In this document: one piece after another, positions 1 to 32,356 of the stretch
Layout: the number at the start of each line of letters is the position of its first letter
Numbering within the stretch: the stretch's first letter is position 1
From: Candidatus Portiera sp.
GTDB taxonomy: Bacteria > Pseudomonadota > Gammaproteobacteria > CBDBNL01 > JAAOII01
Length of the DNA stretch: 32,774 nt
Reading direction: 5' to 3'
Assembly (NCBI GenBank): GCA_015163845.1
Contig: JAAOII010000113.1
Span: forward strand, 1 to 32,774
Translations under genes and position numbers: made by a program
Notes under the pieces: generated by a model
Databases searched by the model: none
Told to the model about the DNA's origin: nothing
The model's input: the letters and a program-made list of their open reading frames with translations, nothing else

Positions 1-2
1 GT

Positions 3-578: not shown

Positions 579-591
579 TATAAAACCAGAA

Positions 592-1326: not shown

Positions 1327-1372
1327 TCCCCCTTATATAAATATCTAGTACAAATATTTAGAGCATCTTTTA

Positions 1373-4857: not shown

Positions 4858-5184
4858 ATTAAATAATATTATAGGTCATTTTTTCTGATTTTGATTCTTT
4901 CAGGTTTTCTATTGGTATGAAAAGTGAGAGTAACTTGATAGTGAGTGAGAAAGATGCCCTAAATAGACGAAATTAAAAATTTTGATTTTATTGCAAAAAT
5001 ATTCAATTTACGACCTAAATAAATATTTTATGCTAATCTGCAATTAATGATATTAGTTAATTTAGAAAACATTAGAGATTGAAATGGACGTTATAACTCC
5101 ACGCATTCTTGGTATAACAAACGTTAAAAATGTTTTCTTAACAATCTTATATCATATTATTATTTACAAACAAGGAAATTAATT

Positions 5185-6735: not shown

Positions 6736-6816
6736 AACAAACCAGATGGGATAATTAATAGAGAAACTTTATTCTTACAATATATTTAACTAGCTGTTTA
6801 TTTGTAATAAAAAGGT

Positions 6817-7329: not shown

Positions 7330-7412
7330 TGTTTGTTGATAGCATTATGAATATAGCATAGCTTTGCAATAGCAACGAATTACAATTAATAAGCAACCAA
7401 GAGGAAATTACT

Positions 7413-7850: not shown

Positions 7851-8542
7851 TGGTTGATAAGATAGTTAACGTAAGCAAACTTAATATTAGAAATTATCCC
7901 AAAGGATCTTTGCAGGGATATATCAAATCTGGAACTGAAGTAGAGGTATTTGAAGAAAAGAGTGGTTGGTCAAAGATAAAAACAACTGCATGGGTAATGA
8001 GCGATTATCTGCGCGATCTTCCAGAATCAGAAACTGTGAGTGGTGAAGTTATAAAGAGAATTGTAATCCACTGCTCAGCTACAAAACCAGATTATAATGC
8101 AACTGCAGAGGATATTAAGAAATGGCATACCGACCCCGTATTCAAAGGTGGACGAGGTTGGTCTCGTGCTGGCTATCATTGGGTAATAGAACGTGAACCA
8201 TGTCGTGTGGTGCCGTTGGTAGCTATGAATGATGACGAAGTTTTAGAATCATGGGAAATATCTAATGGAGTTAGAGGGTATAACAAGGACTCCATCCACG
8301 TCTGCTATGTTGGTGGATTAAATGAAAAGGGACGTCCCGCTGATAATATAACTCCTGAGCAAACAGAGGAATTAGTTGCATTATTGCAATCTTTAGTTCA
8401 AACTCGCCCAAACTTACAGCACATTGTTGGGCACACTGATCTTTACCCACTAAAGGCATGTCCATCATTTGATGTTGCAAAGTTTCTACATAAGAATCTT
8501 TCGCAGGATTTGGCTAAGAAGTATGCTTTACCTTTAAGATAG
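7850..8542 (+). CDS. N-acetylmuramoyl-L-alanine amidase (Amidase_2/PGRP/T7-lysozyme type) with N-terminal SH3 domain; endolysin-like
   Basis: SH3-like LNIRNYPKGSLQGYIKSGTEVEVFEEKSGWSKIKTTAWV. Amidase_2 motifs IVIHCSAT, AGYHWVIE, IHVCYVGG and IVGHTDLYPLKACPSFD (His/His/Cys zinc site pattern). Confidence 0.85.
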   Translation: MVDKIVNVSKLNIRNYPKGSLQGYIKSGTEVEVFEEKSGWSKIKTTAWVMSDYLRDLPESETVSGEVIKRIVIHCSATKPDYNATAEDIKKWHTDPVFKGGRGWSRAGYHWVIEREPCRVVPLVAMNDDEVLESWEISNGVRGYNKDSIHVCYVGGLNEKGRPADNITPEQTEELVALLQSLVQTRPNLQHIVGHTDLYPLKACPSFDVAKFLHKNLSQDLAKKYALPLR

Positions 8543-8571
8543 CTGAAAATAACTGAAAATAGTTTAAGAAA

Positions 8572-8817
8572 ATGCAGTCATTAATACAACTATTACAAAA
8601 AAGAACACTGGACAATAAATATTTCCCGCAGATAGTTTACTCTGGTTGTGCTCTGGCAATATACACCTTTATGCTAATACCAATATCAGGTCTAGCCGGA
8701 TTAACTCTTCCAGCAATAGCAGTAGCTGAGTCGCAGATATTCTGGGCTTCATGGTCTGTTTTAGTTGGTGGTGGCTCATTGCTGCGCTCTAAAATAAAAA
8801 TAAAAACATATGCTTAA
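8572..8817 (+). CDS. Small two-TM membrane protein (possible lysis accessory or antiholin-like)
   Basis: An 81-aa ORF with two hydrophobic helices (IVYSGCALAIYTFMLIPISGLAGL; IFWASWSVLVGGGSLL) and a basic tail, 30 bp downstream of the amidase. Function is inferred from position only. Confidence 0.4.
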   Translation: MQSLIQLLQKRTLDNKYFPQIVYSGCALAIYTFMLIPISGLAGLTLPAIAVAESQIFWASWSVLVGGGSLLRSKIKIKTYA

Positions 8818-8951
8818 ACTCAAATCAAAACCGCCATTTTTCAGAGGCATATTTATGCTGCCATGGCAATTATCATTATCCAAATTATTGGTTATTGCTG
8901 GTGCAGGAAACATACATAACATATTTAATTTAACCAACAAAAGATAACACA

Positions 8952-9914
8952 ATGCCAAAACAATCAACAATGACTAATAGATTTATGAATTATCCTATCA
9001 TAAAATGGATCATTGATAAATTTGATAAAATTAAGAAGAGGCCTTGGTTTATCAATTCTGCGCTTACCGCAGCATTATTGTGCTGGTTAACTTTAGTATT
9101 TTACTTCCCCAATGTTGTTAAATATGATAAAGAATTAGATGGTAATAAAGGTGATATTTTTAAATGGATTAGAGTGATCATAGCTGGAATATTTGTGATT
9201 TTTATACCCTTAATACTTTCTGAAAAAGGAACACGTCCAAAAAGCAAAATATTGACTAAGGAAAACTATATGCTGGTTTTAGTGCTTACTATAATCTTTG
9301 TAGTATTAACATTAGTTAGTGAGAATATTAGTGCTATTGTAGGGGCACTGCAAAATAGTAAGAATTGGCTGAGAGATGTTTTTTTTGAACTGGTTAATAA
9401 TGAGAAGGGACTTGCTCCATTTGCATGGACAACATTATTCTTAGTTGCAGTGGCTATCGCAGTTTTATCACACACTTTTTGGTGGTTTTTTACTGGGATT
9501 ATAGGAATTATTGTAGCAGCATTCATATTAATTGTTCCTCCAGTTGTTGAAGGTATTCAGCCCAATGAAATGAATTGGGTGATAAACATATTAGTTATAT
9601 TAGCGAGTGGGGTGGTGTTACCTTTCATGGTGGTTAAAGAAATAACAGAAAAAGACAAGATTAAAATGAGCGGGAGTACATTAGTTTCTATTGGCATAAA
9701 ATCTCTTGCTGTGCCCGCCTTGGTGTTTACTTTCATTTCTACTAGTCCTAATTTTAATAATGACACTCCTCAGATAGAATCTAATACAACGATAGACAAT
9801 TCTACTGGAAGTATAGAGAGTATAGAAAAGATTATAGATAACCATACTTATGCCTTTCAAGGACAGTTCCATATTGAGTTTAATAGAGATTTAAAGGACA
9901 GAATTATTATCTGA
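8952..9914 (+). CDS. Polytopic inner-membrane protein of unknown function
   Basis: A 320-aa ORF with at least 6 long hydrophobic segments and a hydrophilic Asn/Ser/Thr-rich C-terminal ~60 aa. No recognisable motif. Confidence 0.5.
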   Translation: MPKQSTMTNRFMNYPIIKWIIDKFDKIKKRPWFINSALTAALLCWLTLVFYFPNVVKYDKELDGNKGDIFKWIRVIIAGIFVIFIPLILSEKGTRPKSKILTKENYMLVLVLTIIFVVLTLVSENISAIVGALQNSKNWLRDVFFELVNNEKGLAPFAWTTLFLVAVAIAVLSHTFWWFFTGIIGIIVAAFILIVPPVVEGIQPNEMNWVINILVILASGVVLPFMVVKEITEKDKIKMSGSTLVSIGIKSLAVPALVFTFISTSPNFNNDTPQIESNTTIDNSTGSIESIEKIIDNHTYAFQGQFHIEFNRDLKDRIII

Positions 9915-10038
9915 TGGCACACGACATCTAGTTAAACACTGGTTTATTAACCTAGTTGTATTAGTTTAATAACATTATTATGAACCAAGATTTTGAGCTT
10001 TTAACCTTGTTTATATTATAAAAAATAAGAGTTAGATT

Positions 10039-11112
10039 ATGAGTGATTTTTTTGAGATTGATTTTTTAAATACTGGGTCAAGGCAAAGCGGCGATGCCAT
10101 TACGTTAAGATATTCAATTAATGGCAAGATTAGAATCCATGTGACCGATGGTGGATTTCAAGATACTGGGAATTTGATAATAGAACATATAAACGAACAT
10201 TATAATTACCCAAGTCGTATTGATGCTATTATAGTAACTCATTCTGACAATGATCATACGGGAGGATTAGCTAAATTATTTGATGAATATGAAATTGGTG
10301 AGCTTTGGATGTTAAGACCATGGCAATATGCTGAAGAATTAATTGCAAGATTTCCTCGGTTTACTTCTATTGATAACCTTAAAAAACGAATGAAAGACAT
10401 TTACCCTAATATAGCTACCTTGGAAGAACTTGCTGAAAAAAATAATGTGGCAATTATGGAACCATTCCAAAACTCTAAGATTGGATATTTTCATGTCTTG
10501 GCACCGTCTAAGGAGCATTATCTTGATCTTGTGGTTGAATCTGATAAAACACCAGAAGGGACTACTAAATCCATTTCTGAGGAGATGGGACAAATTGTCA
10601 ATAAAATTAAAAGTTTGATCATCTTTGCATGGGGGGTGGAACATTTTCCAGAAGATGATACGAGTCCCGAAAATAATATGAGCGTGATTCAATATGCCTA
10701 TCTATGTGAGAAGAAAGTTTTGCTAACTGGGGATGCAGGACGTGCCGCTCTTAATGAGGCGGCTGACTTTGCGCCAAGTACGGGGCTAGAACTCCCGAAT
10801 AGCTTTCACTGCATACAAGTACCGCATCATGGTTCAAGACACAATGTATCAACTGAAGTTTTAAACCGTTGGCTAGGCCTTGTATCTAAAGTTAATTACG
10901 AGGGTAACCTATCAACTGCAATTGTCAGTGCTGCAAAGGAAGATAAAGATCATCCAAGAAAGGCAGTTGTTCGGGCTTTTAATCACAGAAGAGCAAAAGT
11001 AATGTCTACAGCAGAATGTAGTGTGCGAAATCAGAGTCCCAATGCTCCAACTCGTGAAGGGTGGAGACCAGCAACCCCTCTTCCATATCCAGAAGCTCAA
11101 GAGAAATTGTAG
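10039..11112 (+). CDS. Metallo-beta-lactamase-fold hydrolase, ComEC C-terminal-domain-like
   Basis: HxHxDH-type motif IIVTHSDNDHTGG, then LLTGDAG and QVPHHGSRHN as in the ComEC/Rec2 MBL domain. No TM segments. Confidence 0.75.
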   Translation: MSDFFEIDFLNTGSRQSGDAITLRYSINGKIRIHVTDGGFQDTGNLIIEHINEHYNYPSRIDAIIVTHSDNDHTGGLAKLFDEYEIGELWMLRPWQYAEELIARFPRFTSIDNLKKRMKDIYPNIATLEELAEKNNVAIMEPFQNSKIGYFHVLAPSKEHYLDLVVESDKTPEGTTKSISEEMGQIVNKIKSLIIFAWGVEHFPEDDTSPENNMSVIQYAYLCEKKVLLTGDAGRAALNEAADFAPSTGLELPNSFHCIQVPHHGSRHNVSTEVLNRWLGLVSKVNYEGNLSTAIVSAAKEDKDHPRKAVVRAFNHRRAKVMSTAECSVRNQSPNAPTREGWRPATPLPYPEAQEKL

Positions 11113-11218
11113 TTATATATGCTGGGGGTGATTATTAATTCTAAATTAGTTATTAATATAACTCTGTTAGCTATAATTCTGTAGCTATAATGTCCTATAA
11201 TAATAAGAAAGAGAATAA

Positions 11219-11291
11219 GGGGCCATAGCTCAGCTGGGAGAGCATCTGCTTTGCAAGCAGGAGGTCGTCGGTTCGATCCCGTCTGGCTCCA
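11219..11291 (+). tRNA. tRNA-Ala (anticodon UGC)
   Basis: GGGGCCATAGCTCAGCTGGGAGAGCATCTGCTTTGCAAGCAGGAGGTCGTCGGTTCGATCCCGTCTGGCTCCA folds as a cloverleaf by hand. It has the G3:U70 Ala identity pair, anticodon loop TTTGCAA and T-loop GGTTCGATCC. CCA is not encoded. Confidence 0.95.
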
Positions 11292-11383
11292 TATATTTTT
11301 TTATTTCTTGATATTTTGCTAATATTTTTCTAGTATAGAAATTTGTATTTGCTTTTTATCAAAATTTATTATATAATGACACT

Positions 11384-13654: not shown

Positions 13655-15019
13655 ATGCGTAAAAGTAACTTTCATTTTCTTGACATTGAACGTGGTGATC
13701 CTCCTCTAATCCCTATGGACGAGCGGAGGGGCTCGTTTAAAGAAATTCATAGCGAATATCAGCAGGATAAGGCAGCAGTTCAGGCAGAGAGATGCCTAGA
13801 TTGCGGTATTCCTTACTGTGAATGGGCATGCCCCGTGCATAATTATATCCCCAACTGGCTTGAGCTAGTGGCTAAAGGGCAGATATTCCGCGCCGCAGAA
13901 CTTTGCCATGAGACCAACAGTTTGCCTGAAGTATGTGGCAGAATTTGTCCTCATGACCGCCTATGCGAAGGTGCCTGCACTCTAAATGATGGCTTTGGAG
14001 CTGTCACTATAGGTTCAGTAGAAAAACACATAACTGATACTGCTTTTGCTTTGGGTTGGCGACCTGATTTATCAAAAGTAAAGCCAACTGGTAAGAAAGT
14101 TGCCATAATAGGAGCTGGTCCTGCTGGTCTTGCCTGTGCCGACATAATGCTACGTGGCGGCGTCAAAGCAACCGTTTTTGATAAGTATCCTGAGATTGGT
14201 GGATTACTTAACTTCGGCATTCCGCCATTTAAACTAGACAAGCAAGTTCTTGATCTACGGCGTAAAATTTTTGAGGAAATGGGTGCAGAGTTTAGGATGA
14301 ATACTACAATCGGTAAAGACATAATGATGGAAGAATTATTAGCAGAGTATGATGCACTATTCTTGGGCATGGGCACTTACAAATATGTAGATGGTGCTTT
14401 ACCCGGTATGGACTTGAATAATGTTTACATGGCATTACCTTTTTTGATTGGTAATATCAATAAGGTGCGAGGATATGATGAGGGAACTGAGTTTATTAAT
14501 ATGGAGAATAAGCGGGTGATTGTATTGGGGGGTGGCGATACAGCTATGGATTGTAACCGCACCAGTATTAGACAAGGAGCAAGATCTGTCATTTGCTGTT
14601 ATCGTCGCAATGAGTCAGATATGGCTGGTTCGCTCAAAGAAGTAAAGAATGCTCGAGAAGAAGGAGTCATTTTTAGATTTAACTTACAACCAACCGAGAT
14701 ATTAGAGAGTGCTGGTGGGATATCAGTCAAGTTCCAATATACGGGAGAAGAAAAACAAGGCAAAGATTCCGAAGAGCAAATTATTGAAGCAGATGCTGTG
14801 ATACTTGCTTTTGGTTTTCGTCCTAATCCACCAGAATGGTTGAAAGAGCATAAAATATCCATTCACGAGGATGGTCGGGTTAAGGTGAATGACAGCCACC
14901 AAACAGACAATCCTAAGATATTTGCAGCAGGAGATATGGTCAGAGGCGCCGATCTGGTTGTAACCGCCATAGCTGATGCCCGCGAAGCAGGACAGCAAAT
15001 GATTAATTATATTAAATAA
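13655..15019 (+). CDS. gltD: Glutamate synthase small-subunit (GltD)-like NAD(P)H-dependent FAD/Fe-S oxidoreductase
   Basis: Two Cys clusters CLDCGIPYCEWACP and CGRICPHDRLCEGAC. Dinucleotide folds VAIIGAGPAGLACA and VIVLGGGDTAMDC. C-terminal IFAAGDMVRGADLVVTAI. No gltB lies next to it. Confidence 0.85.
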   Translation: MRKSNFHFLDIERGDPPLIPMDERRGSFKEIHSEYQQDKAAVQAERCLDCGIPYCEWACPVHNYIPNWLELVAKGQIFRAAELCHETNSLPEVCGRICPHDRLCEGACTLNDGFGAVTIGSVEKHITDTAFALGWRPDLSKVKPTGKKVAIIGAGPAGLACADIMLRGGVKATVFDKYPEIGGLLNFGIPPFKLDKQVLDLRRKIFEEMGAEFRMNTTIGKDIMMEELLAEYDALFLGMGTYKYVDGALPGMDLNNVYMALPFLIGNINKVRGYDEGTEFINMENKRVIVLGGGDTAMDCNRTSIRQGARSVICCYRRNESDMAGSLKEVKNAREEGVIFRFNLQPTEILESAGGISVKFQYTGEEKQGKDSEEQIIEADAVILAFGFRPNPPEWLKEHKISIHEDGRVKVNDSHQTDNPKIFAAGDMVRGADLVVTAIADAREAGQQMINYIK

Positions 15020-15049
15020 TAATACAAAATTTGTATTAAAATATTAAGC

Positions 15050-15817
15050 GTGAAGAAAGATTCCGTAGCCCACATAATAGTAGTTACCTTAGCAGTATGT
15101 TTTGTCTGTTCAATTGCTGTATCTATGGCAGCAGTCCTGTTACGCGATCAACAAAACATCAATAGTGAATTAGCAAGAAAACGTAATATTCTAATAGCGG
15201 CTAATGTCATTGATCCACAAAAAGTAACTCCAGCTGAAGTAGAAGATATATTCAGTCGCGCTGAAGTTAAATTGGTTGATTTACAGGAAGGAAGTTTCAT
15301 TGATGAGGCAGATTCTCCCATAGACATTTCCACCTATGACCAAAGGAAAGCTGAGGGTGATCCGCAGTTATCCATGGATCTTAACTCCAAACAGGACATT
15401 GCTTCCATCAGCAGACGTGAGAGATATTCATTGATTTACTATATCAATAATGGAGATAAGACCTCTGCTATTTTCCCCATACGCGGCTATGGCTTATGGT
15501 CAACATTACGAGGATATTTGGCATTGAGCACTGCTGACTACAATACCATTGTTGGAGTTACATTTTACGAACATGCTGAAACTCCCGGCTTGGGTGGTGA
15601 GGTGGATAATGAGGATTGGAAAAATCAGTGGCGTGGTAAAAAATTATTCAGTGATGATGGCAGTTCTACTATTCAGCTAACACGCACTGCCTCTGGTTCT
15701 GACAATCAAGTAGATGCTCTTTCAGGAGCAACTCTTACATCTAATGGAGTTAATAACTTGATTAACTTCTGGTTTGGTGAATTGGGATTTGGCGATTTAA
15801 TTAATAAACTTAAATAA
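15050..15817 (+). CDS. nqrC: Na+-translocating NADH:quinone oxidoreductase subunit C
   Basis: Collinear with Vibrio NqrC as I remember it: one N-terminal TM helix, YDQRKA, YYEHAETPGLGGEV and the FMN-attachment site LSGATLTSNGV. GTG start. Confidence 0.9.
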   Translation: MKKDSVAHIIVVTLAVCFVCSIAVSMAAVLLRDQQNINSELARKRNILIAANVIDPQKVTPAEVEDIFSRAEVKLVDLQEGSFIDEADSPIDISTYDQRKAEGDPQLSMDLNSKQDIASISRRERYSLIYYINNGDKTSAIFPIRGYGLWSTLRGYLALSTADYNTIVGVTFYEHAETPGLGGEVDNEDWKNQWRGKKLFSDDGSSTIQLTRTASGSDNQVDALSGATLTSNGVNNLINFWFGELGFGDLINKLK

Positions 15818-15834
15818 ATTTGATAATAAGCAGT

Positions 15835-16974
15835 ATGAAATATATAAAAGATAAATTGACTAGGGATATATTAGAACCAGCTGGCATCAAGATAAATGGC
15901 AAAGAGGTCTGGGACCCTCAAATTAAAAACGACAAAATATTCAGCAGAATTGCAAAACAGCAATCCTTAGGTCTTGGCGAGGCATACATGGATGGCTGGT
16001 GGGAATGTAATAATTTGGAAGAGTTCTTTTATAGAATACTTTCATCATCAATGAACGACAAAGATAATAATCTAGACGGGCGCCCCAAGGGATTTTTTGA
16101 AGGACTGATATATCGTTATATGCCGCTTCTAGTAAACCAGCAGACCTTCAAACGTTCCACAAAAGTTGCCTATGAACATTATGATGTTGGCAATGATGTT
16201 TATGACTTAATGCTCGGCAAGGATATGCAATATACTTGTGCTTACTGGCAAGAATCCGAAACCCTTGACGAAGCACAACATAATAAATTAGATCTTATTT
16301 GCCGTAAACTTAAACTTAAACCAGGCATGGAAGTTTTAGAATTGGGTGGTGGTTTTGGCGGTTTAGCTCGGTTCATGGCAAAGAACTATGGCTGTTCTGT
16401 TACTGTCTATAACATTGCTCGCGAGCAAATTAAACGTGCGCAAGAGTTAACTGCAGGGCTAAAAGTCAAGATCATTGAGTCGGACTATCGTAATGCCATG
16501 GGAGTTTATGATCGTGTCGCTGCTATAGGTCTGGCTGAACATGTGGGTTTCAAGCATTACCGGACTCTAATGGAAAAGGCCTATTCATGCTTGAAAGATA
16601 AAGGATTATTTATCATTCAGACCAATGGTTCCAATAATACCATGCACCACTATGAGCCGTGGATGGAAAAGTATATTTTTCCCAACAGCATGATCCCCTC
16701 AGCTAAACAACTATCTATTGCTAGTGAAGGATTGTTTATGATGGAGGACTGGCATGTGATGAGCGGCAACTACTACAAGACCTTAATGTCTTGGTATGAC
16801 AATTTTGTCAAAGAGTTCCACAAGATCAAAGATAAATATGATGAAAGATTCTATAGAATGTGGTGTTACTATTTGTTGTTTTCTGCCGCAAGCCATAGAA
16901 GTCGTAGTGTTCAGTTATGGCAGCTAGTCTTGTCAAAAAACAATGTGGGCGTCCCCTATGTTTCCGGAAGATAA
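15835..16974 (+). CDS. cfa: Cyclopropane-fatty-acyl-phospholipid synthase family (CMAS) methyltransferase
   Basis: LGLGEAYMDGWWEC N-terminal motif, YDVGNDVYDLMLGKDMQYTCAYW, SAM site VLELGGGFGGLARFMA, and IFPNSMIPS. ATG 15835 is preferred over the in-frame TTG 15820 of the ORF track. Confidence 0.9.
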   Translation: MKYIKDKLTRDILEPAGIKINGKEVWDPQIKNDKIFSRIAKQQSLGLGEAYMDGWWECNNLEEFFYRILSSSMNDKDNNLDGRPKGFFEGLIYRYMPLLVNQQTFKRSTKVAYEHYDVGNDVYDLMLGKDMQYTCAYWQESETLDEAQHNKLDLICRKLKLKPGMEVLELGGGFGGLARFMAKNYGCSVTVYNIAREQIKRAQELTAGLKVKIIESDYRNAMGVYDRVAAIGLAEHVGFKHYRTLMEKAYSCLKDKGLFIIQTNGSNNTMHHYEPWMEKYIFPNSMIPSAKQLSIASEGLFMMEDWHVMSGNYYKTLMSWYDNFVKEFHKIKDKYDERFYRMWCYYLLFSAASHRSRSVQLWQLVLSKNNVGVPYVSGR

Positions 16975-16998
16975 GAAGAATAATAATATAATACAACT

Positions 16999-17673
16999 AT
17001 GAAAACCACAGACGTTCTATTTGATCCAGTATTCAGTAAAAATCCTATAGCATTACAGGTGCTGGGAATATGCTCTGCACTTGCAGTTACTGGCAATTTA
17101 CGCATTACTTTGGTAATGTGCTTGGCAGTGATTTTAGTAACAGCATTTTCCAACTTTTCCATTTCATTAATTCGCAACTACATTCCTACCAACATACGTA
17201 TCATCATCCAGATGGTAATTATTGCTTCGCTGGTAATAGTAGTAGATCAAATCCTCAAGGCCTATGCTTATGAAGTGAGTAAGCAACTATCGGTTTTTGT
17301 GGGATTAATTATCACCAACTGTATTGTCATGGGGCGGGCTGAAGGTTTTGCCATGCAAAACCCTCCTTTTATTAGCTTTGTTGATGGTATTGGCAATGGT
17401 TTAGGTTACAGTGTGTTGTTGATTGCGGTTGCAATATTGCGCGAACTCTTCGGTTCTGGGTCATTACTAAACTTCTCAATACTACCTTTAGTGAAAGATG
17501 GTGGCTGGTATGTGCCAAATGGCTTGATGTTGCTCCCTCCAAGTGCCTTCTTCATTATTGGATTTATTATATGGGGATTACGCAGTTGGAAAACCGAACA
17601 GGTTGAAGTAAAAGATTTCTCTATAATGCCACATAATGGTATGAATGCAGGTATTTCTAAGGCAGGTTCATAA
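16999..17673 (+). CDS. nqrD: Na+-NQR subunit D
   Basis: [17 protein letters not shown] and [17 protein letters not shown] are hallmark NqrD/RnfE motifs. Polytopic. Confidence 0.92.
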
Positions 17674-17681
17674 AGATTATT

Positions 17682-18293
17682 ATGTTTGAAGAATATCTAA
17701 GTTTACTCCTCAAGGCAATATTCGTAGAGAATATTGCACTGGCTTTCTTTTTAGGCATGTGCACTTTCATAGCCATTTCCAAGAAAATTTCAGCAGCTAT
17801 AGGTTTAGGCATTGCTGTTGTTGTAGTGCAAGCAATCACAGTCCCAGCTAATAACTTAATCTTCACCTATCTACTAAATGATGGTGCTTTGGCATGGATG
17901 GGTTTTCCATCAGTGAATTTGTCTTTCTTGGGCTACCTCAGCTACATAGGAGTTATAGCCGCCATAGTGCAAATATTAGAAATGTTCCTTGACAGATATG
18001 TTCCTGCTCTCTATAATGCCTTAGGAATTTTCTTGCCTTTGATAACAGTTAATTGTGCTATTTTGGGAGGTACTTTGTTTATGGTGGAGAGGGATTATGA
18101 TTTTGGTGAGAGTGTAATCTATGGAGTTGGTTCAGGAGTTGGTTGGGCTTTGGCAATAGTAGCTTTGGCTGCTATCCGCGAAAAGCTCAAGTATAGCGAT
18201 ATTCCTGCAGGCCTACAAGGTTTAGGTATAACTTTTATGATAGTGGGTCTAATGTCGCTAGGTTTTATGTCATTTTCAGGCATCCAGTTGTAA
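17682..18293 (+). CDS. nqrE: Na+-NQR subunit E
   Basis: [24 protein letters not shown] and [13 protein letters not shown] match NqrE/RnfA. Confidence 0.92.
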
Positions 18294-18297
18294 AAAA

Positions 18298-19521
18298 ATG
18301 CAAGAAGTCATATTAGGAGTAATTTTCTTCTCCGTCATAGTTCTAGTTCTCGCGTTCATAATTATTGGTGCTAGATATTTATTAGTCAGTAGTGGCGATG
18401 TCAAGATTGGCATTAACAGTGATGATGCAAAGTCACTTGTAACTTCCGCTGGTTCCAAACTTCTGCAAACACTGGCAGCCAATAATATATTTCTTTCTTC
18501 CGCCTGTGGTGGCGGTGGCACCTGTGGTCAATGCAAATGCATAGTCCATTCTGGTGGCGGATCTGCTTTGCCCATAGAAGAGGGTGTTTTTAATCTTGCA
18601 GAGTTGAGACAGGGCTGGCGTCTTTCTTGCCAGACCCCAGTTAAGCAAGATATGCAAATAGACATTCCCACTGACGTATTTGGTGTGCGTAAATGGGAAT
18701 GCGAAGTTGTCTCAAATAATAATGTAGCCACTTTCATCAAAGAATTAGTGCTTAAATTGCCTGAAGGTGACGAAGTTGATTTTAAGGCAGGAGGATTTGT
18801 GCAAATGGAAGTTCCCCCTTACCAAATGGATTACAAGACCATAGATGTTGCCAGTGAGTTCACTTCGGACTGGGATAGATTCAAGTTTTGGGACTTAAGT
18901 GTTAAATCACCAGAAACAGTTATTCGTGCTTACTCCATGGCAAACTATCCACAAGAAAAAGGCATACTCAAGTTTAATATTCGCATAGCAACGCCTCCTC
19001 CCGGAACTAACCTTTCTCCGGGCATTGTTTCTTCTTATGTGTTTAACTTGAAACCAGGAGACAAGCTTACAGTATTTGGCCCCTTCGGTGATTTCTTTAT
19101 CAAAGATACTACAAGCGAGATGGTATATATTGGCGGTGGTGCAGGCATGGCACCTTTAAGATCACATATATTTGATCTGTTTAAGAGCCGCACTACTAAT
19201 AGAAAGATTAGTTATTGGTATGGTGCTCGTAGCTTAAGAGAACTATTTTATAGTGAAGAGTTTGAAGAATTATCTAAGAATCATGATAATTTTTCATGGA
19301 ATGTTGCTATGTCTGATCCTTTGCCTGAAGACAATTGGAAAAGTTATACTGGATTTATTCACCAAGTTGTCTATGAGAATTACCTGAAAAATCACCCTGC
19401 ACCAGAGGATATAGAATATTACCTTTGTGGACCACCCATGATGAATTCGGCAGTGCAACAGATGCTTGATGATTTAGGTGTTGAACCAGAGAATATTGCC
19501 TTTGATGATTTTGGGGGATGA
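18298..19521 (+). CDS. nqrF: Na+-NQR subunit F (2Fe-2S ferredoxin / FAD / NADH domains)
   Basis: N-terminal TM helix, 2Fe-2S site [18 protein letters not shown] site [17 protein letters not shown], and the canonical C-terminus IAFDDFGG. Confidence 0.95.
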
Positions 19522-22019: not shown

Positions 22020-22835
22020 CTAATATATAGCGGTGCCGGCAACTTCGCCATTAAGGACATCACTAATGACATTACGAGTTGTCCCATTGACAACCACAAT
22101 CCGCTTAACTCCCTGATCTAAAGCATCTCTCATTGATAGAATTTTGGGGATCATACCATCAGTTACTATTCCCTGTTCTATGAGTCCATCTATTTGGTCG
22201 CGAGATATCTGATTAATCACTTCCGAGTCAGCATCCAACACACCATCTTGGTCGGTCATATAGAATAGATAGTTGGCTTTATAACTGACAGCTATTGCAG
22301 CGGCAGCCCAGTCGGCATTGACATTATACTCCAGTCCATTGACTAGATCATGGGCAACAGGAGCCATAACTGCAATTTGTCCATTCAGTCCAAGGATGGG
22401 CTTGCTATCAACCGCTTTGCCGACTCTGCCAAGTTTTACTCTTTTTGCGTCATTCCCCTCACTATACTCCCCACTATTCAAGTCATTATCAAGCGGAGCA
22501 CTAAATAGGACTTGTGTTTGCTTGCCATAAATAACTTCACCGCCTTTCTTTTTAATGGCCTCAGCAAGTTCGCTATTGACTTCATCACATAAGACCCTTG
22601 CTACTATTTCCATGGTTGCATCGTCTGTAACTCTTTGTCCTTGATGAAACTTCGGACTAATACCAGCATCCTTTAGTGCTTGGTTGATTCTCATACCCCC
22701 ACCATGGACTAAGATGACTTGGGCACCCAACTTTTGTAAAGCAACTGCCTGCCGACTTATATCATCCAAGCAATCTGCATCATCAATATTTTTGCCACTC
22801 AGCTTTATCACCAAGGTGGCATTCTCTAGTTTCAT
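22020..22835 (-). CDS. argB: Acetylglutamate kinase
   Basis: Collinear with E. coli ArgB as remembered: VIKLSGK, VILVHGGG, NVNADWAAAAIA and GIVTDGMIPKI. Confidence 0.9.
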   Translation of the reverse strand: MKLENATLVIKLSGKNIDDADCLDDISRQAVALQKLGAQVILVHGGGMRINQALKDAGISPKFHQGQRVTDDATMEIVARVLCDEVNSELAEAIKKKGGEVIYGKQTQVLFSAPLDNDLNSGEYSEGNDAKRVKLGRVGKAVDSKPILGLNGQIAVMAPVAHDLVNGLEYNVNADWAAAAIAVSYKANYLFYMTDQDGVLDADSEVINQISRDQIDGLIEQGIVTDGMIPKILSMRDALDQGVKRIVVVNGTTRNVISDVLNGEVAGTAIY

Positions 22836-22846
22836 GTTATTTTATT

Positions 22847-22918
22847 GAGATTGAGATTGAGATTGTGTTTGCGTTTGTGTTTGTGTTTGCGTTTGCGTTT
22901 GCGTTTGCGTTTGCGATT
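22847..22918. repeat. Hexanucleotide microsatellite: (GAGATT)x3 then (GYGTTT)x8 plus GCGATT
   Basis: Read directly; 12 consecutive hexamers fill almost the whole 81-bp spacer between the PMM stop (22917-22919) and the argB start (22833-22835). On the coding strand the tract reads (AAACRC)n(AATCTC)3. Confidence 0.95.
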
Positions 22919-24329
22919 AAAGTTTGCTTGCTTCTAAATTTGTCAGATCAAGTTGCGGAGCCGCTGCTGATAGTTGGATGATAAAACTATCTATGATGCG
23001 ATTCAGTGCTGCATTATTATCAGCTTCAAAACGTAATACTAAGACCGGGCTGGTGTTTGAGGCACGCACCAATCCCCAGCCATCTGCATATTCAGCACGC
23101 ACACCGTCAATTTCAATAACTTCCTGTGCTGCAAACTTGTCTTTGTTTTCCCGTATTTTGTCAATCACTACAAACTTTTCCTTCTCGGTGGTGTGCAAGT
23201 TAATCTCAGGAGTGGAGATTCTATCAGGATAGGCAGACAGCAGACCACTTAGATCACTCTGCTTTTTATCCATTATGTTGAGCAATTTTACTCCTGCCAG
23301 CAGGGCATCGTCACTCTTAGGCCAGTTCTCGGCAAAGAAAATATGCCCACTCATTTCACCAGCGAGCAATGCTCCCGTCTCTTGCATTTTGCGTTTTATA
23401 AGAGAGTGCCCAGTATTCCACATAACCGGCTCTCCGCCATTTTCCTTGATGACCTTTGCCAATAATGAAGAACACTTCACATCATAAATAATTGGTGTCC
23501 CTGGATGACGGCTTAGTAGATCTTCTACTAGGAGCATTAAGAAGCGATCAGGAAAGGTAATCTCTCCTTGATTGGTTATGAGCCCCAAACGATCACCATC
23601 ACCATCAAAAGCTAAACCAGCATCAGCATTAAGTTCACGCACCTTGGCTTGTATCTCCACTAAATTCTTAGGGTTACCTGGATCTGGATGGTGATTAGGG
23701 AAATTGCCATCTACTTCGCAGTAAAGTTCAGTCACCTTACAACCAAGGTTGCGATAGAGTTGCGGGGCACACATCCCAGTAACACCATTACCGCTATCAA
23801 CTACTATATGATACTCGCGGCTAAGTTTAATCCCAGCAGTCAATGCCTCTAGATAGATAGGCAGGAAATCTTCTTGACGCATTTTGCCGACTATTGTATC
23901 AGTTGGGAAGTTTTCATTAACTATATTATGATAGAGTTGTTCTATGCCATCCAATGCAACTGACTCCGTATCTAACAACATTTTGCAGCCATTATAATTT
24001 TTTGGATTATGACTACCGGTTATCATTATTCCCGCATCTGCTTGTAATTTGCTTACTGCAAAATATAGGCAAGGTGTGGGCACCATGCCTATGTCTATGA
24101 CATCAATAGCGGATGCGACCAAACCATCAATCAAGCCCTTGCTTAAAGATGGGGAAGATAACCTACCGTCACGTCCAATAATAATGCTTGATAGACCCTT
24201 TTTATGCATTTCTTGAGCATAGGACTTACCGAGTAGAGTAAATAATTCTGGTGTTAGTTGTTCATCTAGGATGCCGCGTATGTCATAGGCACGAAATACA
24301 TCTTTAGGTATTTGTTGCTGCTTGTTCAT
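22917..24329 (-). CDS. Phosphomannomutase/phosphoglucomutase (AlgC/ManB type)
   Basis: Active-site Ser loop MITGSHNPKNYNGCKM, metal loop AFDGDGDRLG, sugar loop GEMSGH, and RASNTSP phosphate loop. Confidence 0.9.
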   Translation of the reverse strand: MNKQQQIPKDVFRAYDIRGILDEQLTPELFTLLGKSYAQEMHKKGLSSIIIGRDGRLSSPSLSKGLIDGLVASAIDVIDIGMVPTPCLYFAVSKLQADAGIMITGSHNPKNYNGCKMLLDTESVALDGIEQLYHNIVNENFPTDTIVGKMRQEDFLPIYLEALTAGIKLSREYHIVVDSGNGVTGMCAPQLYRNLGCKVTELYCEVDGNFPNHHPDPGNPKNLVEIQAKVRELNADAGLAFDGDGDRLGLITNQGEITFPDRFLMLLVEDLLSRHPGTPIIYDVKCSSLLAKVIKENGGEPVMWNTGHSLIKRKMQETGALLAGEMSGHIFFAENWPKSDDALLAGVKLLNIMDKKQSDLSGLLSAYPDRISTPEINLHTTEKEKFVVIDKIRENKDKFAAQEVIEIDGVRAEYADGWGLVRASNTSPVLVLRFEADNNAALNRIIDSFIIQLSAAAPQLDLTNLEASKL

Positions 24330-24349: not shown

Positions 24350-25423
24350 TTATGTTAGTTGATTATAAGATTTACGAGTTGTATTAATAAACTCTCGCCA
24401 AGGCAAAGGTTGATTGCCCAACAGTATATTCTCTTTGGCTATGACGGTTACCAGTTTGATATACTGGAAGAGGGCGACATAACCCTGCCACAATGTATTG
24501 CTTGGATGATACATATGCGGTGGTTCACCCATTACAGAGTTTAGTTCTACCACTTTAAAATTTTTCCCCGCCTGCAAATCCTTTTCACTAAATGCCAAGA
24601 TATCATAGCGGCCTATGAAGAATCCAGGATAGCCCTTGCTCAGAGCATCAATCTTATTAGATAGGTCCTGAGTTATGAGGTTGCGGGAGTCGTTAAAAAT
24701 AGCTCCACGCGAGTGAGTGCCTATCTCTACCAGTTTAAATTCTTCTTCTTTTGCTGGCACCCAGTCCAATTTATCTTTATGTTTAGCCAAGTGCACTTTA
24801 TACATTATGCAGGCGCGAGGATGTTTCATTATGAGGTGCTTTAGATTATTGACACCATCTCCTTGTAAAAAGATTGAATCCTTGCGACCCAAAGAAAAAA
24901 TCCAACCCTTATCCTCATTGGGCAACCTAGCATAATGAACACCATACTCTATGCCGGGAGTGAACTCTTGTAGCATATACAGAGCATCTTGATGTTTACT
25001 AAGCTTAGGAATATCTGCTAAACATTCTAATAGTTGTTCGCGACTATCAGCTAACTTAATATCCGCTCCTCTTTGACCTATCTGTGGTTTGACTATTATG
25101 GGGAACTTGAGTTCATGGAGTTTCATAAAAGCATCAGTTAATTTTGGCCAGTTATTTCTTTCTGCTTCTACCAAAGACAATGAGTTGGGAATATGTTCTG
25201 GGTATTTTTGTGCTAACTGGTTTAGGACCCCCACCTTAGGCGCTTGGAATATCCCTACCTTGAGCATACCCGGATTAGCAACTGAAAGCAGGCCTAGATA
25301 GCCATTTCTCCAGCACCTCCAAAGATAATAGATTATGCCTGGTGCATAGAATATGGCTGTGGGCCAAAACTCGTAATGAGTTATTTTGATCCAACGCGAG
25401 TATATCTTTCGTGTCAGATACAT
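24350..25423 (-). CDS. ATP-grasp family ligase with an N-terminal hydrophobic anchor
   Basis: FWPTAIFYAPGIIYYLW is a hydrophobic N-terminal segment. ATP-grasp pattern: IIVKPQIGQRGADIKL, LQEFTPGIEYGVHY, and FKVVELNSVMGEP (E-x-N metal site). Confidence 0.7.
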   Translation of the reverse strand: MYLTRKIYSRWIKITHYEFWPTAIFYAPGIIYYLWRCWRNGYLGLLSVANPGMLKVGIFQAPKVGVLNQLAQKYPEHIPNSLSLVEAERNNWPKLTDAFMKLHELKFPIIVKPQIGQRGADIKLADSREQLLECLADIPKLSKHQDALYMLQEFTPGIEYGVHYARLPNEDKGWIFSLGRKDSIFLQGDGVNNLKHLIMKHPRACIMYKVHLAKHKDKLDWVPAKEEEFKLVEIGTHSRGAIFNDSRNLITQDLSNKIDALSKGYPGFFIGRYDILAFSEKDLQAGKNFKVVELNSVMGEPPHMYHPSNTLWQGYVALFQYIKLVTVIAKENILLGNQPLPWREFINTTRKSYNQLT

Positions 25424-25445
25424 TCGTTAGAGTAGTTTGTTAAGA

Positions 25446-26270
25446 TCAATAAATTCTCTTGCGGTCGCCCATAAACATTTTATGCTGTCTATCGGATATG
25501 GCGGCAGAGTCATAGAGAATTAGGAAATCCAATGTTTTGAACTCTTTGTACATGCAGGGTTCGCCACACACACGGCATTTAAATCTTAAATAAAGGCTGA
25601 AGAGAGGAGGGATGACAGTATTGGTGATATCCACGGGCAATTTACGATACTCACATTTAGAATCCGGCAAGGCCTCAATCATTATGCTGTCATGATAGAC
25701 CTTCATTGCTTCCAGCAACTGAACATAGCCATTGGCATCTTGTGGGTTGCTACTAGGTATGGAATTACATCCCCAAAAATATCTGAGATTATTCTCAACA
25801 AGGCATATTGCCAAACCTTGCCACAGAACATGAAACACTTTGGAGTTGCGATGATTTGGTTCTATGCAGGCACGACTTACAGCCAAAGAACTCTTAAGAA
25901 TTTCTTCGGGCATTTGTGATAAATCATACCTATCAGATCCACAGAAATTCGTGCCGTTTTTGGCGATTTCATAATTTTGAATTCTATAAGTAGCGACAAT
26001 CTTATTGTTTTCTTTACTAACTACTATGAGTTGCAAAGCATCCGCATCAAAAGAATCAATGTCCATTTGCTTGTCATATGCAGAGTCCAGACCGACTGAC
26101 ATTTCTAAATTAAAGACCCTAAAGCGGAGCTTGAATACCTCCTCCAATTCTTCGGGGGTCTCAGCAATTTTGACTAGATACCTATTTGTTTCTGCCATGG
26201 GCGACTCGGCATTAAAGTTCTTAATGTGCCTAGTATTTGCCTCATCATGTATTCTTAATAAATTATCCAT
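25446..26270 (-). CDS. OlsB/FeeM-like N-acyl amino acid synthase (Acetyltransf_5-type GNAT), paralog 2
   Basis: IAETPEELEEVFKLRFRVFNLEM, DSFDADALQLIVV, IVATYRIQNY and PPLFSLYLRFKCRVCGEP follow the lyso-ornithine-lipid synthase-like pattern. Confidence 0.7.
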   Translation of the reverse strand: MDNLLRIHDEANTRHIKNFNAESPMAETNRYLVKIAETPEELEEVFKLRFRVFNLEMSVGLDSAYDKQMDIDSFDADALQLIVVSKENNKIVATYRIQNYEIAKNGTNFCGSDRYDLSQMPEEILKSSLAVSRACIEPNHRNSKVFHVLWQGLAICLVENNLRYFWGCNSIPSSNPQDANGYVQLLEAMKVYHDSIMIEALPDSKCEYRKLPVDITNTVIPPLFSLYLRFKCRVCGEPCMYKEFKTLDFLILYDSAAISDRQHKMFMGDRKRIY

Positions 26271-26365
26271 TTCCTTTAATCTATCTTGTTAATTAATCTA
26301 ATTGTTGTATTATCTGTAAGGTTTAAAAAGTATTTTAGCAGAAAATTAGCTGATTAGGTGAGTTA

Positions 26366-27148
26366 TTATTTTTTACCAGCAAAATATTCAACTACTCTTG
26401 ATGGTAATCTATTCACATCCAATAAAATTAGAAAAGTTATGGTCTTGAAATCACGATCAAAACAGGGATCACTGCATATAGTGCACTTGAATTTTAGATA
26501 GATGCTAAACAAAGGCGGCAAGGTCACTTGACTAATATCAGCAGTGCTCTCTTCATAGTCACACCGAAAGTCCTCCAGTGCCTTGAGACGGATCTTATCA
26601 TGATACACACCCATTTCATTAAACAACCTCACTAAGCCATTAGCATCTTGCTGATCGGTGCTCTGCACTGAACTACAACCGAAGAAATAGCGGACATTAT
26701 TCAAAAGCATTAGAGCTGCTAAGCCCTTCCACAACAGCCCCATCACTATGGAATTGCGATAAGGACGTGCCACGCAAGCACGGCTGGTCTCTATGCTTTT
26801 CTTTTGAATATCCATGGAAAATTTGCTGAAATCAAACCTTTCAGCACTGTAGAAACCATTGCCATTTTTTGCCATAGTGTAATTCTGCACTCTATAAGTG
26901 GCGATGACTTTATTGGTTTTACAATAGATGACAACTAGATGCACAAACTGGTCGTCAAAATCATCCATATCCAACCCTTTGCTAAACGAGCTATCCAGTC
27001 CTTCGCTCAATTCCAAGTTAAATACCTTGAACCTAAGCCGCAATGCCTGTTGTATTTCTTCTTCCGAGTCGGCAACCTTGACAACAAAATCCTCCTGCTC
27101 TATGAGCGGATTATTTATTTTGATAGGAACTTTATCGTTTAGTATCAT
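26366..27148 (-). CDS. OlsB/FeeM-like N-acyl amino acid synthase (Acetyltransf_5-type GNAT), paralog 1
   Basis: VADSEEEIQQALRLRFKVFNLEL, DDFDDQFVHLVVI, VIATYRVQNY and PPLFSIYLKFKCTICSDP. Clearly paralogous to the 25446-26270 product along its full length. Confidence 0.7.
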   Translation of the reverse strand: MILNDKVPIKINNPLIEQEDFVVKVADSEEEIQQALRLRFKVFNLELSEGLDSSFSKGLDMDDFDDQFVHLVVIYCKTNKVIATYRVQNYTMAKNGNGFYSAERFDFSKFSMDIQKKSIETSRACVARPYRNSIVMGLLWKGLAALMLLNNVRYFFGCSSVQSTDQQDANGLVRLFNEMGVYHDKIRLKALEDFRCDYEESTADISQVTLPPLFSIYLKFKCTICSDPCFDRDFKTITFLILLDVNRLPSRVVEYFAGKK

Positions 27149-27227
27149 TCCACTATTATATAGGACAATTAGCTATCTTTATGCTTAGCTAATAATTAGT
27201 AATAATCTATAATATGAATAGAAGATC

Positions 27228-27920
27228 ATGCTAACAATAGATAACTTAACTTGTACCCATAAAAGCGACTTAGTGCTTAAAGGTCTTAATCTCTCACTTG
27301 CCAAAGGAGAGATAGGTGCAATAATGGGCAATAATGGTGTTGGTAAATCAACCCTGTTGCAGGCAATTGCCGGGTTCATTAGCATAGATCAAGGATCCAT
27401 CTGTTTTGACGGGAATATTCTTTCCACGGCTAATTGGTTACAAGAACCAGCTAAACGTTCTGTCGGGATGGTATTCCAAGAGATGGCTTTATTCCCGCAC
27501 CTCAGTGCCGAGCAAAACTTGATCTTTGGTTTACAAGGATTACCAACTGCGACAAAGAAGGAAAGATTACAAGAAATTAGCCAGCTACTTCATTCTAACC
27601 ATTTGTTGGACAAATATCCCTATGAATTATCTGGCGGAGAACAGCAACGCATAGCCATAGGTAGAACCTTGGCTACTGCCAAACCCTTAATGTTGTTTGA
27701 TGAACCATTTGCTAAATTAGATGTGTCATTAAAACGAGAGCTATCATTTTCAGTTAGAGAGTATCTCCAACAACGAAATATCACGGCTATTTTTGTTAGC
27801 CATGATAAGACAGAGGCGATTAACATGTGTGACAAATTGGGAACCCTTGAAAAAGGCAACCTCAGCACTTGGCAAGATAAGCGTGAACTGGCCGTTGATA
27901 TGATGGACTTATTACCTTAG
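27228..27920 (+). CDS. ABC transporter ATP-binding protein (FbpC/PotA-like, lacks C-terminal regulatory domain)
   Basis: Walker A GNNGVGKST, Q-loop VFQEMALFPH, signature LSGGEQQR, Walker B LMLFDEP, H-loop VSHD. Only 230 aa. Confidence 0.85.
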   Translation: MLTIDNLTCTHKSDLVLKGLNLSLAKGEIGAIMGNNGVGKSTLLQAIAGFISIDQGSICFDGNILSTANWLQEPAKRSVGMVFQEMALFPHLSAEQNLIFGLQGLPTATKKERLQEISQLLHSNHLLDKYPYELSGGEQQRIAIGRTLATAKPLMLFDEPFAKLDVSLKRELSFSVREYLQQRNITAIFVSHDKTEAINMCDKLGTLEKGNLSTWQDKRELAVDMMDLLP

Positions 27921-31963: not shown

Positions 31964-32356
31964 TTGTCAGAATATTCATATAAAGGACTAAATGGTGAAC
32001 CCAGTCGCCGTTTCATTTCTGCTGCCCGTTGCCCCTCTTGTCAGAGAGAAGACACCTTATACTTCGTTGGTGAAATAGGAGGTGATCACGCCTGCATAGA
32101 GTGTGGCTATGACTCCAGTCGTCCAGCCGCAACTCATGCGGAGGCAGTCAAAATAATGGATGCTCCATCTAAATCATCCAAATCATCCAAATCATCCAAG
32201 CAATCTAAACCGTCTAAGCAACAGGGAAATACAAGTACAAGTACAAATACGAATACAAATGCAAATGCAAACACAAATGCAAACACGAATGGAGATTCTA
32301 CCCAACAGGATGGGGCGTTAGAATATCTTGGAGAAGATCTTGGAGAAGATGTTTGA
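31964..32356 (+). CDS. YheV-like zinc-ribbon protein with a long repeat-encoded low-complexity C-terminal tail
   Basis: RRFISAARCPSCQREDTLYF ... ACIECGY resembles the YheV/DUF2387 4-Cys ribbon. The tail is SKSSKSSKSSKQSKPSKQ, then NTSTSTNTNTNANANTNANTN, then LGEDLGED. The only in-frame start upstream of the ribbon is TTG 31964. Confidence 0.55.
   Translation: MSEYSYKGLNGEPSRRFISAARCPSCQREDTLYFVGEIGGDHACIECGYDSSRPAATHAEAVKIMDAPSKSSKSSKSSKQSKPSKQQGNTSTSTNTNTNANANTNANTNGDSTQQDGALEYLGEDLGEDV
32168..32350 (+). repeat. In-frame coding microsatellites: 9-mer AAATCATCC x3 (32171-32197), hexamer AAYRCN tract (32228-32290), 12-mer CTTGGAGAAGAT x2 (32327-32350)
   Basis: Read directly from the sequence. 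All periods are multiples of 3. Confidence 0.9.

Follow-up and report, generated by a model that had tools for sequence, protein, structure and literature searches.

What might an ATP-grasp ligase do beside two amino acid N-acyltransferases? The question is raised by a locus of Candidatus Portiera sp. (assembly GCA_015163845.1, contig JAAOII010000113.1). The stretch analyzed, here called the window, is 32,774 nucleotides long, and in it two paralogous genes of the OlsB-like GNAT type, GNAT-A and GNAT-B, precede a gene for a 357-amino-acid ATP-grasp protein. Aminolipids, with head groups of ornithine, lysine, glycine, glutamine, Ser-Gly, Orn-Ser-Gly, or ornithine-taurine, are major phosphorus-free membrane lipids, and some act as signals to immune receptors of the host. 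The genes that make their first amide and ester bonds are known. Reviews of the field cover OlsBA, OlsF, OlsHI, GlsBA, GluB, hydroxylases, and one methyltransferase (PMC11631085, 2024; PMC12971839, 2026). Transfer of taurine to the carboxylate of ornithine lipid is ATP dependent and has no known gene, and Ser-Gly and Orn-Ser-Gly head groups exist for which no ligase is named (PMC12971839). Here, we infer that the locus encodes an aminolipid pathway in which the known part is an OlsB-type first step and the new part is an undescribed ATP-grasp modification enzyme. The best explanation of the three genes is that they are a reduced version of a widespread and so far undescribed aminolipid module.

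The acyltransferases resemble OlsB

Both GNATs match Acetyltransf_5 (PF13444; Pfam cutoff, 22.4), GNAT-A with 88.9 bits (E 4e-25) and GNAT-B with 81.0 bits (E 1e-22). They align to each other without gaps at 46% identity over 248 amino acids (BLASTP E 4e-91), and every column that is invariant in an alignment of 12 subfamily members is retained in the two proteins. The original prediction, made by a model from the letters of the sequence, had called them paralogs with the shared blocks RLRF/VFNLE, ATYR.QNY, and PPLFS.YL.FKC, and each block is indeed present in both. It had also called them OlsB-like, and OlsB models are the top NCBIfam matches of each (112 and 108 bits for GNAT-A, 104 and 90 bits for GNAT-B), albeit far under the equivalog cutoffs of 320 bits (NF052555) and 350 bits (NF052554). 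None of the 12 subfamily members, those of other phyla included, reaches an OlsB equivalog cutoff (about 110 to 140 bits; best E 4e-41). The window GNATs likewise fall short of the equivalog cutoffs for GlsB (31 to 35 bits against 300) and OlsF (56 to 60 bits against 620), and the solved structures near the subfamily were limited to insignificant matches to acyl-homoserine lactone synthases. We conclude that the GNATs are OlsB-like N-acyl-amino-acid synthases and not OlsB equivalogs, and therefore the amino acid that they use cannot be assigned.

The origin of the pair appears to be local. In a neighbor-joining tree (no bootstrap), all gammaproteobacterial GNATs form one clade that splits into an A and a B branch, and thus the duplication happened inside this gammaproteobacterial lineage. 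The A branch holds GNAT-A and its orthologs at four of the homologous loci that we numbered (L001, L002, L005, and L037), and the B branch includes GNAT-B, the GNAT of L007, and both copies of L006. A single GNAT suffices in some relatives, as L002 has an A copy only and L007 a B copy only. Thus, the tandem paralogs noted in the original prediction are present in the window, but two copies are not needed throughout the lineage.

The ATP-grasp protein is predicted to be an intact ligase

The 357-amino-acid protein has no Pfam match at E<=0.01, PF13535 included, and all of its NCBIfam scores are 21 bits or less. The match to the RimK family has 20.4 bits where 143 are required (E 3e-4), and LysX is also weak. 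An AlphaFold2 model built with 19 homologs (pLDDT 89, pTM 0.87) found 254 PDB matches by Foldseek at E<=1e-3, and all of the 50 top ones listed are ATP-grasp enzymes. The best matches are GshF, the cyanophycin synthetases CphA1 and CphA2, Ddl, and LysX, at 10 to 19% identity, and the nearest solved relatives all make peptide or amide bonds from a carboxylate and the amine of an amino acid. A profile of the family best matches CphA2 (E 1.5e-8), with the KP-Lys and E-x-N Mg-binding motifs in register, together with the G domains of CphA1; these cyanophycin enzymes activate the backbone carboxylate at the end of the chain. In an alignment of 19 family members, K112-P113 and E293-L294-N295 are invariant, as are R272 and D274. 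Judging from the predicted structure, the ATP-grasp identity of the protein is solid. By its motifs, the window ligase is a catalytically intact carboxylate-amine ligase that is the ortholog of no characterized one. It does not group with RimK or Ddl, an outcome that would have counted against the original prediction: the scores are far under the NCBIfam cutoffs and the structures are only 10 to 19% identical, and on these grounds a housekeeping ligase of either kind was ruled out.

The N terminus differs from what had been proposed. The original prediction envisaged a hydrophobic, membrane-anchoring N terminus, but no classical transmembrane helix was found in the protein (Kyte-Doolittle maximum, 1.15). 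What stands in its place is an aromatic-rich segment at residues 20 to 38, whose interfacial energy on the Wimley-White scale, -9 kcal/mol, lies about 3 standard deviations under the protein mean. The segment (residues ~17 to 51) is conserved family-wide, with E18, W20, Y26, N50, and P51 invariant and a signature of E-F-W-P...N-P-G, and in this family a conserved aromatic helical segment thereby replaces the N-terminal substrate domain that is usual in ATP-grasp enzymes. Membrane association finds stronger support in the DedA fusion of homologs than in the N terminus of the window protein.

Homologs are fused to DedA and hydrolase domains

The ATP-grasp family is large, with 633 representative clusters (50% identity) at E<=1e-30 and members in the genomes of at least 539 GTDB species. 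Most homologs (33 to 38% identity over 93 to 99% of the query) are proteins of 520 to 610 amino acids with an N-terminal DedA/VTT domain, and many are triple fusions of 840 to 900 amino acids that join an alpha/beta-hydrolase, DedA, and ATP-grasp. Genomes were scanned with an alignment of nine ATP-grasp sequences, and 80 loci from distinct GTDB species were examined; ~17 encode a stand-alone ligase, ~30 a DedA fusion, and ~30 a hydrolase-DedA fusion. The loci span Acidobacteriota, Rhodothermia, Calditrichia, Verrucomicrobiota, Planctomycetota, Gemmatimonadota, Desulfobacterales, Spirochaetota, and Gammaproteobacteria. Among cultured bacteria, homologs are found in Paracoccus denitrificans PD1222 (WP_011751140.1), Azospirillum sp. 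B510 (WP_247894514.1), and Salinivibrio proteolyticus (WP_269598830.1), among others. A weak match to PF08443 is seen in part of the family.

The fusions annotated as "VTT domain-containing protein" (NCBI) or "membrane protein DedA with SNARE-associated domain" (JGI) are true homologs, 33 to 38% identical over the 357 amino acids, the N-terminal signature included. The window protein differs from them in being stand-alone, one of the ~17 such among the 80 loci; its open reading frame begins 4 to 5 residues before the region of homology, and a VTT/DedA domain (PF09335) is absent from the polypeptide, from the window, and from the six loci of its lineage. In the fused homologs, hydropathy points to a signal-anchor N-terminal to the hydrolase and to several DedA helices ahead of the ligase, which suggests that the hydrolase is outside and the ligase inside. 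The DedA part best matches the undecaprenyl-phosphate transporter UptA among NCBIfam models, weakly (50 bits against a cutoff of 250). A literature search, in which subscription journals were not covered, returned no description of an ATP-grasp family with DedA/VTT, OlsB, aminolipids, or N-acyl amino acid synthases and no function assigned to any of its members. RefSeq labels Salinivibrio members of the family (e.g., L094 6926-8038, on Salinivibrio proteolyticus plasmid NZ_CP114585.1) as "D-alanine--D-alanine ligase." Given the distance from Ddl and the DedA/NRDE context, that label is probably a mis-annotation.

The ligase and an OlsB-like GNAT are neighbors across phyla

Conservation of the neighborhood elsewhere had been set beforehand as a test of the prediction. 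The triad of GNAT, GNAT, and ATP-grasp recurs in the closest genomes (L001, L005, L006, and L037). Of the 53 loci with 5 kb or more of upstream flank, which come from many phyla, 45 have an OlsB-like GNAT near the ATP-grasp gene, nearly always upstream and on the same strand. By a rough estimate that allows each genome no more than a few PF13444 genes, the probability that a GNAT lies within ~7 kb by chance is on the order of 1%. In the typical operon, all on one strand, the genes run GNAT, PlsC, DinB-like, NRDE/TANGO2-like, and then DedA-ATP-grasp with or without the hydrolase; DoxX and an M48-like gene often come next. The PlsC of these operons best matches OlsA, the lyso-ornithine-lipid O-acyltransferase (144 bits; cutoff, 300). 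In Desulfobacterales-type loci, a divergent OlsF-like bifunctional gene takes the place of the GNAT.

The association was also seen from the side of the acyltransferase. Two of three GNAT homologs checked (38 to 42% identity) adjoin PlsC and a VTT-ATP-grasp gene, and the third (P0193, in L087) has PlsC and no detectable ATP-grasp. A more distant GNAT, 31% identical, lies beside pst/phoU/phoBR and has no ATP-grasp partner. In L087 (9862-12461), the GNAT and PlsC of the same subfamily are followed by genes for proteins of 201 and 665 amino acids, which have no Pfam or NCBIfam match and no similarity to ATP-grasp. They may be an alternative partner to GNAT and PlsC.

Two further features recur among the loci. 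Genes for the DinB-like (~175 amino acids) and NRDE/TANGO2-like (~260 amino acids) proteins are the most constant companions of DedA-ATP-grasp, even where no GNAT is nearby. Directly 5' of the GNAT in at least seven loci, there is a gene for a fusion of a ferric-reductase transmembrane domain with a Rieske domain and a gene for a ~270-amino-acid protein with no Pfam match. Together, these two genes may be a lipid-oxidizing or hydroxylating add-on to the operon.

The window's lineage keeps a reduced set of partners

The closest genomes are complete gammaproteobacterial chromosomes of metagenome-assembled genomes (MAGs), 1.9 to 2.3 Mb in size, that share one or two GNAT genes, ATP-grasp, PGM, and argB in that order. 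Homologs of the OlsA-like PlsC, the DinB-like protein, TANGO2/NRDE, the alpha/beta-hydrolase, DedA, and DoxX are all missing from the window and from six loci of its lineage, and no PF01553 protein was found there either. The original prediction had remarked on the absence of an O-acyltransferase, and indeed the window has no gene of the OlsA/PlsC type. As a general trait, however, the absence fails, since the majority of related loci from other phyla do carry an OlsA-like PlsC. The sole partner kept beside the ligase in this lineage is the GNAT, with a gap of 22 bp in the window and of 7 bp in L002. Because only the GNAT is kept, the product of the GNAT and the substrate of the ligase are likely connected, and this is the strongest single argument that we have.

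The remaining neighbors are of another kind. PGM and argB accompany the ATP-grasp gene only in the window's lineage (L001, L002, L005, L006, and L037) and in none of ~78 other loci, and synteny within the lineage extends to the flanking GlpK, ABC-transporter, and MsrB genes. Thus, PGM and argB are neighbors by descent and not by function. As functional partners they were rejected, and the hint toward ornithine that the original prediction had drawn from argB falls with them.

Layout of the locus and rest of the window

The gene set and coordinates of the original prediction agree with our own (Table 1): two GNATs, the ATP-grasp gene after a 22-bp gap, PMM/PGM, and argB lie on one strand, and the identities of the last two are upheld by their Pfam and NCBIfam matches. 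The five co-directional genes are separated in turn by gaps of 95, 22, 20, and 81 bp. An AAAGGA motif resembling a Shine-Dalgarno sequence lies 4 nucleotides 5' of the GNAT-B ATG. The promoter-like site upstream of GNAT-A is weak evidence of a promoter. By Rfam, no regulatory RNA was found in the region, and the window's two tRNAs lie elsewhere.

Table 1. Features of the locus and of related loci (window positions unless a locus number is given)
Feature	Position	Strand	Evidence
GNAT-A, OlsB-like N-acyl-amino-acid synthase, 260 amino acids, first gene of the unit	26366..27148	minus	PF13444, NCBIfam OlsB models, neighbor-joining A clade
GNAT-B, paralog of GNAT-A, 274 amino acids	25446..26270	minus	PF13444, BLASTP against GNAT-A
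Stand-alone ATP-grasp ligase of the DedA-associated family, 357 amino acids	24350..25423	minus	AlphaFold2 fold, Foldseek, family profile
PMM/PGM	22917..24329	minus	Four PGM_PMM Pfam domains
argB (acetylglutamate kinase)	22020..22835	minus	TIGR00761, 175 bits against a cutoff of 151
Divergent intergenic region upstream of GNAT-A with promoter-like site TTGTTA-17-TATTAT (27237..27209)	27149..27237	minus	Consensus scan, 9/12 positions
DinB-like and NRDE/TANGO2-like companions	L010 4055-5436; L043 4845-5414; L094 8102-9441; L089 7506-8000		
Rieske-fusion loci	L013, L022, L054, L074, L078, L079, L086		

Other parts of the window hold features of separate interest. Positions 1 to 11300 have a GC content of 0.33 to 0.36, against 0.39 to 0.43 elsewhere, and this stretch ends at a tRNA-Ala (11219-11291). 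Several of its genes resemble those of mobile elements: RadC, two N6/N4 DNA methylases, a three-transmembrane holin of the gene transfer agent (GTA) type beside an endolysin-like SH3/Amidase_2 gene, and a gene of the metallo-beta-lactamase fold. The stretch may be what is left of a prophage, or an island next to the tRNA. A 516-amino-acid protein with an animal haem peroxidase domain (PF03098, E 6e-11) is encoded at 5185-6735 (+) and is unusual for a small-genome bacterium. At 13655-19521 (+), in an odd cluster of the respiratory type, Fer4_20/Pyr_redox_2, FMN_bind, and CMAS genes are followed by NqrD/E-like and NqrF-like genes, in the same order as in L001. The CMAS gene (cyclopropane-fatty-acid-synthase-like methyltransferase, E 4e-66) is a lipid methyltransferase gene within this Nqr/Rnf-like operon. 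Finally, a DUF2387 metal-binding protein (31964-32356, +) has a long low-complexity tail, SKSSKSSKSSKQSKPSK... NTNTNANANTNANTN.

Discussion

How might the ligase act on the product of the GNATs? Starting from the gene identities, the fold, the intact ATP and Mg motifs, the conserved neighborhood, and the domain fusions, we propose that the GNATs make an N-acyl amino acid whose head group the ligase then amidates, a proposal whose chances we put at about even. The GNATs would N-acylate an amino acid to give an N-acyl amino acid (lyso-aminolipid), and by analogy with their family we assume that the donor is an acyl group on acyl carrier protein. The two paralogs probably differ in acyl or amino acid preference. 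The ligase would be held at the cytoplasmic face of the membrane by its aromatic N-terminal segment, and there it would use ATP to turn a carboxylate into the acyl-phosphate. The group activated would most likely be the alpha-carboxylate that is free on the amino acid of the lipid. An acyl-phosphate mechanism is expected from what is known of the ATP-grasp superfamily. The enzyme would then join the amine of a second amino acid, or a taurine-like amine, to give a lipo-dipeptide or an aminolipid amidated at its head group, and judged from the genes such an addition is plausible. A lipid substrate is suggested because homologs are fused to DedA/VTT and alpha/beta-hydrolase domains and because the window protein has an interface-seeking N terminus. 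With enzymes of the RimK/LysX type and the G domains of CphA, it is the larger, anchored substrate whose carboxylate is activated, and a free amino acid is then joined to it. Since these G domains are the nearest relatives by profile, activation of the lipid's alpha-carboxylate is favored. In the majority of other lineages, the ligase is fused to DedA/VTT, a probable lipid flippase or scramblase, and often to an alpha/beta-hydrolase that is probably extracytoplasmic, and such proteins may follow the synthase, translocase, and hydrolase logic of MprF/AcvB.

Several points weigh against this proposal. Eight of the 53 informative loci have no GNAT within ~7 kb, and distant members of the family in Leptospira-type MAGs, Paracoccus, Azospirillum, Salinivibrio, and Komagataeibacter have none nearby. 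The Leptospira-type loci contain DinB-like, DedA-ATP-grasp, DoxX, and hydrolase genes; in P. denitrificans PD1222, the ATP-grasp, the alpha/beta-hydrolase, and VTT are each encoded by a gene of their own; in Azospirillum, the ligase is fused to VTT; a Komagataeibacter (Acetobacteraceae) plasmid has a stand-alone copy that is ~27% identical; and the Salinivibrio locus consists of VTT, the ATP-grasp annotated as Ddl, a DinB-like gene, and NRDE. Therefore, a GNAT product need not serve as the substrate of the ligase in all lineages, and the invariant core is the ligase with DedA, to which aminolipid synthase genes are a frequent and not universal add-on. GNAT-less carriers may, however, encode OlsB or OlsF elsewhere in the genome. 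In the window itself, there is no obvious Shine-Dalgarno motif before the ATP-grasp gene, and scans of the region for promoters and terminators gave counts not above shuffled expectation, which leaves the operon structure unsettled. With no OlsA-type gene nearby, the pathway may stop at a mono-acyl amphiphile and not yield a membrane-forming lipid. Finally, the close relatives are all MAGs, and whether ligation occurs at the carboxylate of the lipid or at a side-chain amine cannot be read from the sequence.

The last point leads to the first of the alternatives, in which the direction of ligation is reversed. The ligase would activate a free amino acid, as its structural neighbors Ddl and the L-amino-acid ligases do, and attach it to a side-chain amine of the head group (e.g., the delta-NH2 of ornithine or the epsilon-NH2 of lysine), altering its charge. 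The neighborhood and fusions fit this as well as they fit the favored direction, and ornithine-specific OlsB models are the top matches of the GNATs. The equivalog cutoffs are not reached, however, so the amino acid of the head group is not fixed, and the closest profile matches, the CphA1/CphA2 G domains, act like the RimK/LysX type on the carboxylate of a larger anchored substrate. We regard the reversed direction as unlikely. A different lipid altogether might be the substrate, such as a phospholipid head group or a polyprenyl-phosphate intermediate, with aminolipid genes linked through shared remodeling of the membrane under stress. DedA, DinB-like, NRDE/TANGO2, alpha/beta-hydrolase, and DoxX genes do persist without a GNAT in Leptospira-type MAGs, Salinivibrio, Paracoccus, Azospirillum, and 8 of 53 loci, and UptA is the best, if weak, NCBIfam match of the DedA part (50 bits against 250). 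Yet the window's lineage lacks exactly those partners locally and keeps the GNAT tightly adjacent, and the GNAT subfamily nearest the window's shares lineages with the ATP-grasp family and adjoins it in two of three cases checked. Moreover, the GNAT-less carriers may have OlsB or OlsF at a distant site. Another lipid thus seems a minor possibility.

The ligase might also act before the GNATs, making a soluble dipeptide or a modified amino acid that they then N-acylate. Many relatives by fold (Ddl, GshF, and the L-amino-acid ligases) couple two free amino acids, and the end product would still be a lipo-dipeptide, in line with the gene linkage. Fusion to DedA, the interfacial N terminus, and the helices that replace the N-terminal substrate domain are hard to square with soluble substrates, however, and make this order of events improbable. 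Alternatively, the ATP-grasp protein could itself be an N-acyl amide synthase that activates a fatty acid as the acyl-phosphate and works independently of the GNATs. An ATP-grasp route (PF13535) to acyl-histidines has been cited for Legionella pneumophila (PMC11631085), and the window also comes from a gammaproteobacterium. The protein nevertheless matches neither PF13535 nor any other ATP-grasp family of Pfam, and its nearest relatives are peptide ligases; such an activity would moreover be redundant with two adjacent N-acyltransferases and would leave the conserved linkage unexplained. We therefore consider it very unlikely. Finally, chance placement of a housekeeping ligase (Ddl, RimK, GshB, or LysX) beside the GNATs is scarcely credible. 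The RefSeq name of the Salinivibrio homologs and the weak NCBIfam matches to RimK and LysX are what speak for it. Against it are the RimK score (20 bits against 143), the 10 to 19% identity to structures of Ddl, LysX, GshF, and CphA, and a family with its own conserved N-terminal signature, its own fusion partners, and a nonrandom gene neighborhood. Amidation of the lipid's own carboxylate remains the reading that we prefer.

How the module relates to known systems depends on which part is compared. As in the pathways of OlsB/OlsA to ornithine lipid, GluB to glutamine lipid, and GlsB/GlsA to glycine lipid, a PF13444 N-acyltransferase comes first, and related loci add a PlsC that best matches OlsA. 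The window and the loci of its lineage differ from those pathways in having no OlsA gene. The related loci differ from described aminolipid pathways in another way, by adding ATP-grasp, DedA, DinB-like, and NRDE-like genes, which occur in none of them (PMC12971839, PMC11631085). The reaction predicted here, an ATP-driven amide on the carboxylate of the head group, is of the same type as the taurine step of cerilipin in Gluconobacter cerinus, the addition of Ser to glycine lipid in flavolipin, and the building of Orn-Ser-Gly. By analogy, the ATP-grasp family is a testable candidate for the type of enzyme that such steps require, whether or not G. cerinus or flavolipin producers (e.g., Bacteroides and Porphyromonas) carry a member of it. 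Distant homologs occur on plasmids of Komagataeibacter, of the Acetobacteraceae, but the Komagataeibacter homolog is only ~27% identical and has no adjacent aminolipid gene.

The ligase itself has the ATP-grasp fold and the ATP/Mg motifs in common with the CphA1 G domain, CphA2, GshF, RimK, LysX, and Ddl. It is set apart from them by its 10 to 19% identity, its aromatic N-terminal segment, its family's DedA and hydrolase fusions, and scores that reach no curated cutoff. In design, the fused homologs recall MprF and hydrolases of the AcvB/VirJ type, with which they share a cytoplasmic synthase for the head group, a translocase, and a hydrolase that, judging from hydropathy, probably faces outward. 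There is no sequence homology to MprF, however, as MprF uses aminoacyl-tRNA and a GNAT-like fold and the family described here is built on ATP-grasp. Both the DedA and the hydrolase domain are, moreover, missing from the window protein.

Why a locus of three genes in one gammaproteobacterial lineage matters lies with its relatives. Together they provide a candidate enzyme family for extending the head groups of aminolipids. We suggest, tentatively and with somewhat less than even confidence, that the ATP-grasp family is a widespread and unrecognized machine for the ATP-driven extension of amino acid lipids at the head group and for their transfer across the membrane, the ATP-grasp counterpart of MprF, and the missing type of enzyme for taurine transfer or dipeptide lipids. 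If so, the mis-annotations "D-alanine--D-alanine ligase" and "putative hemolysin" would be corrected. Ultimately, the family would be a new class of lipid-modifying enzyme, and the DedA domain would gain a defined lipid cargo.

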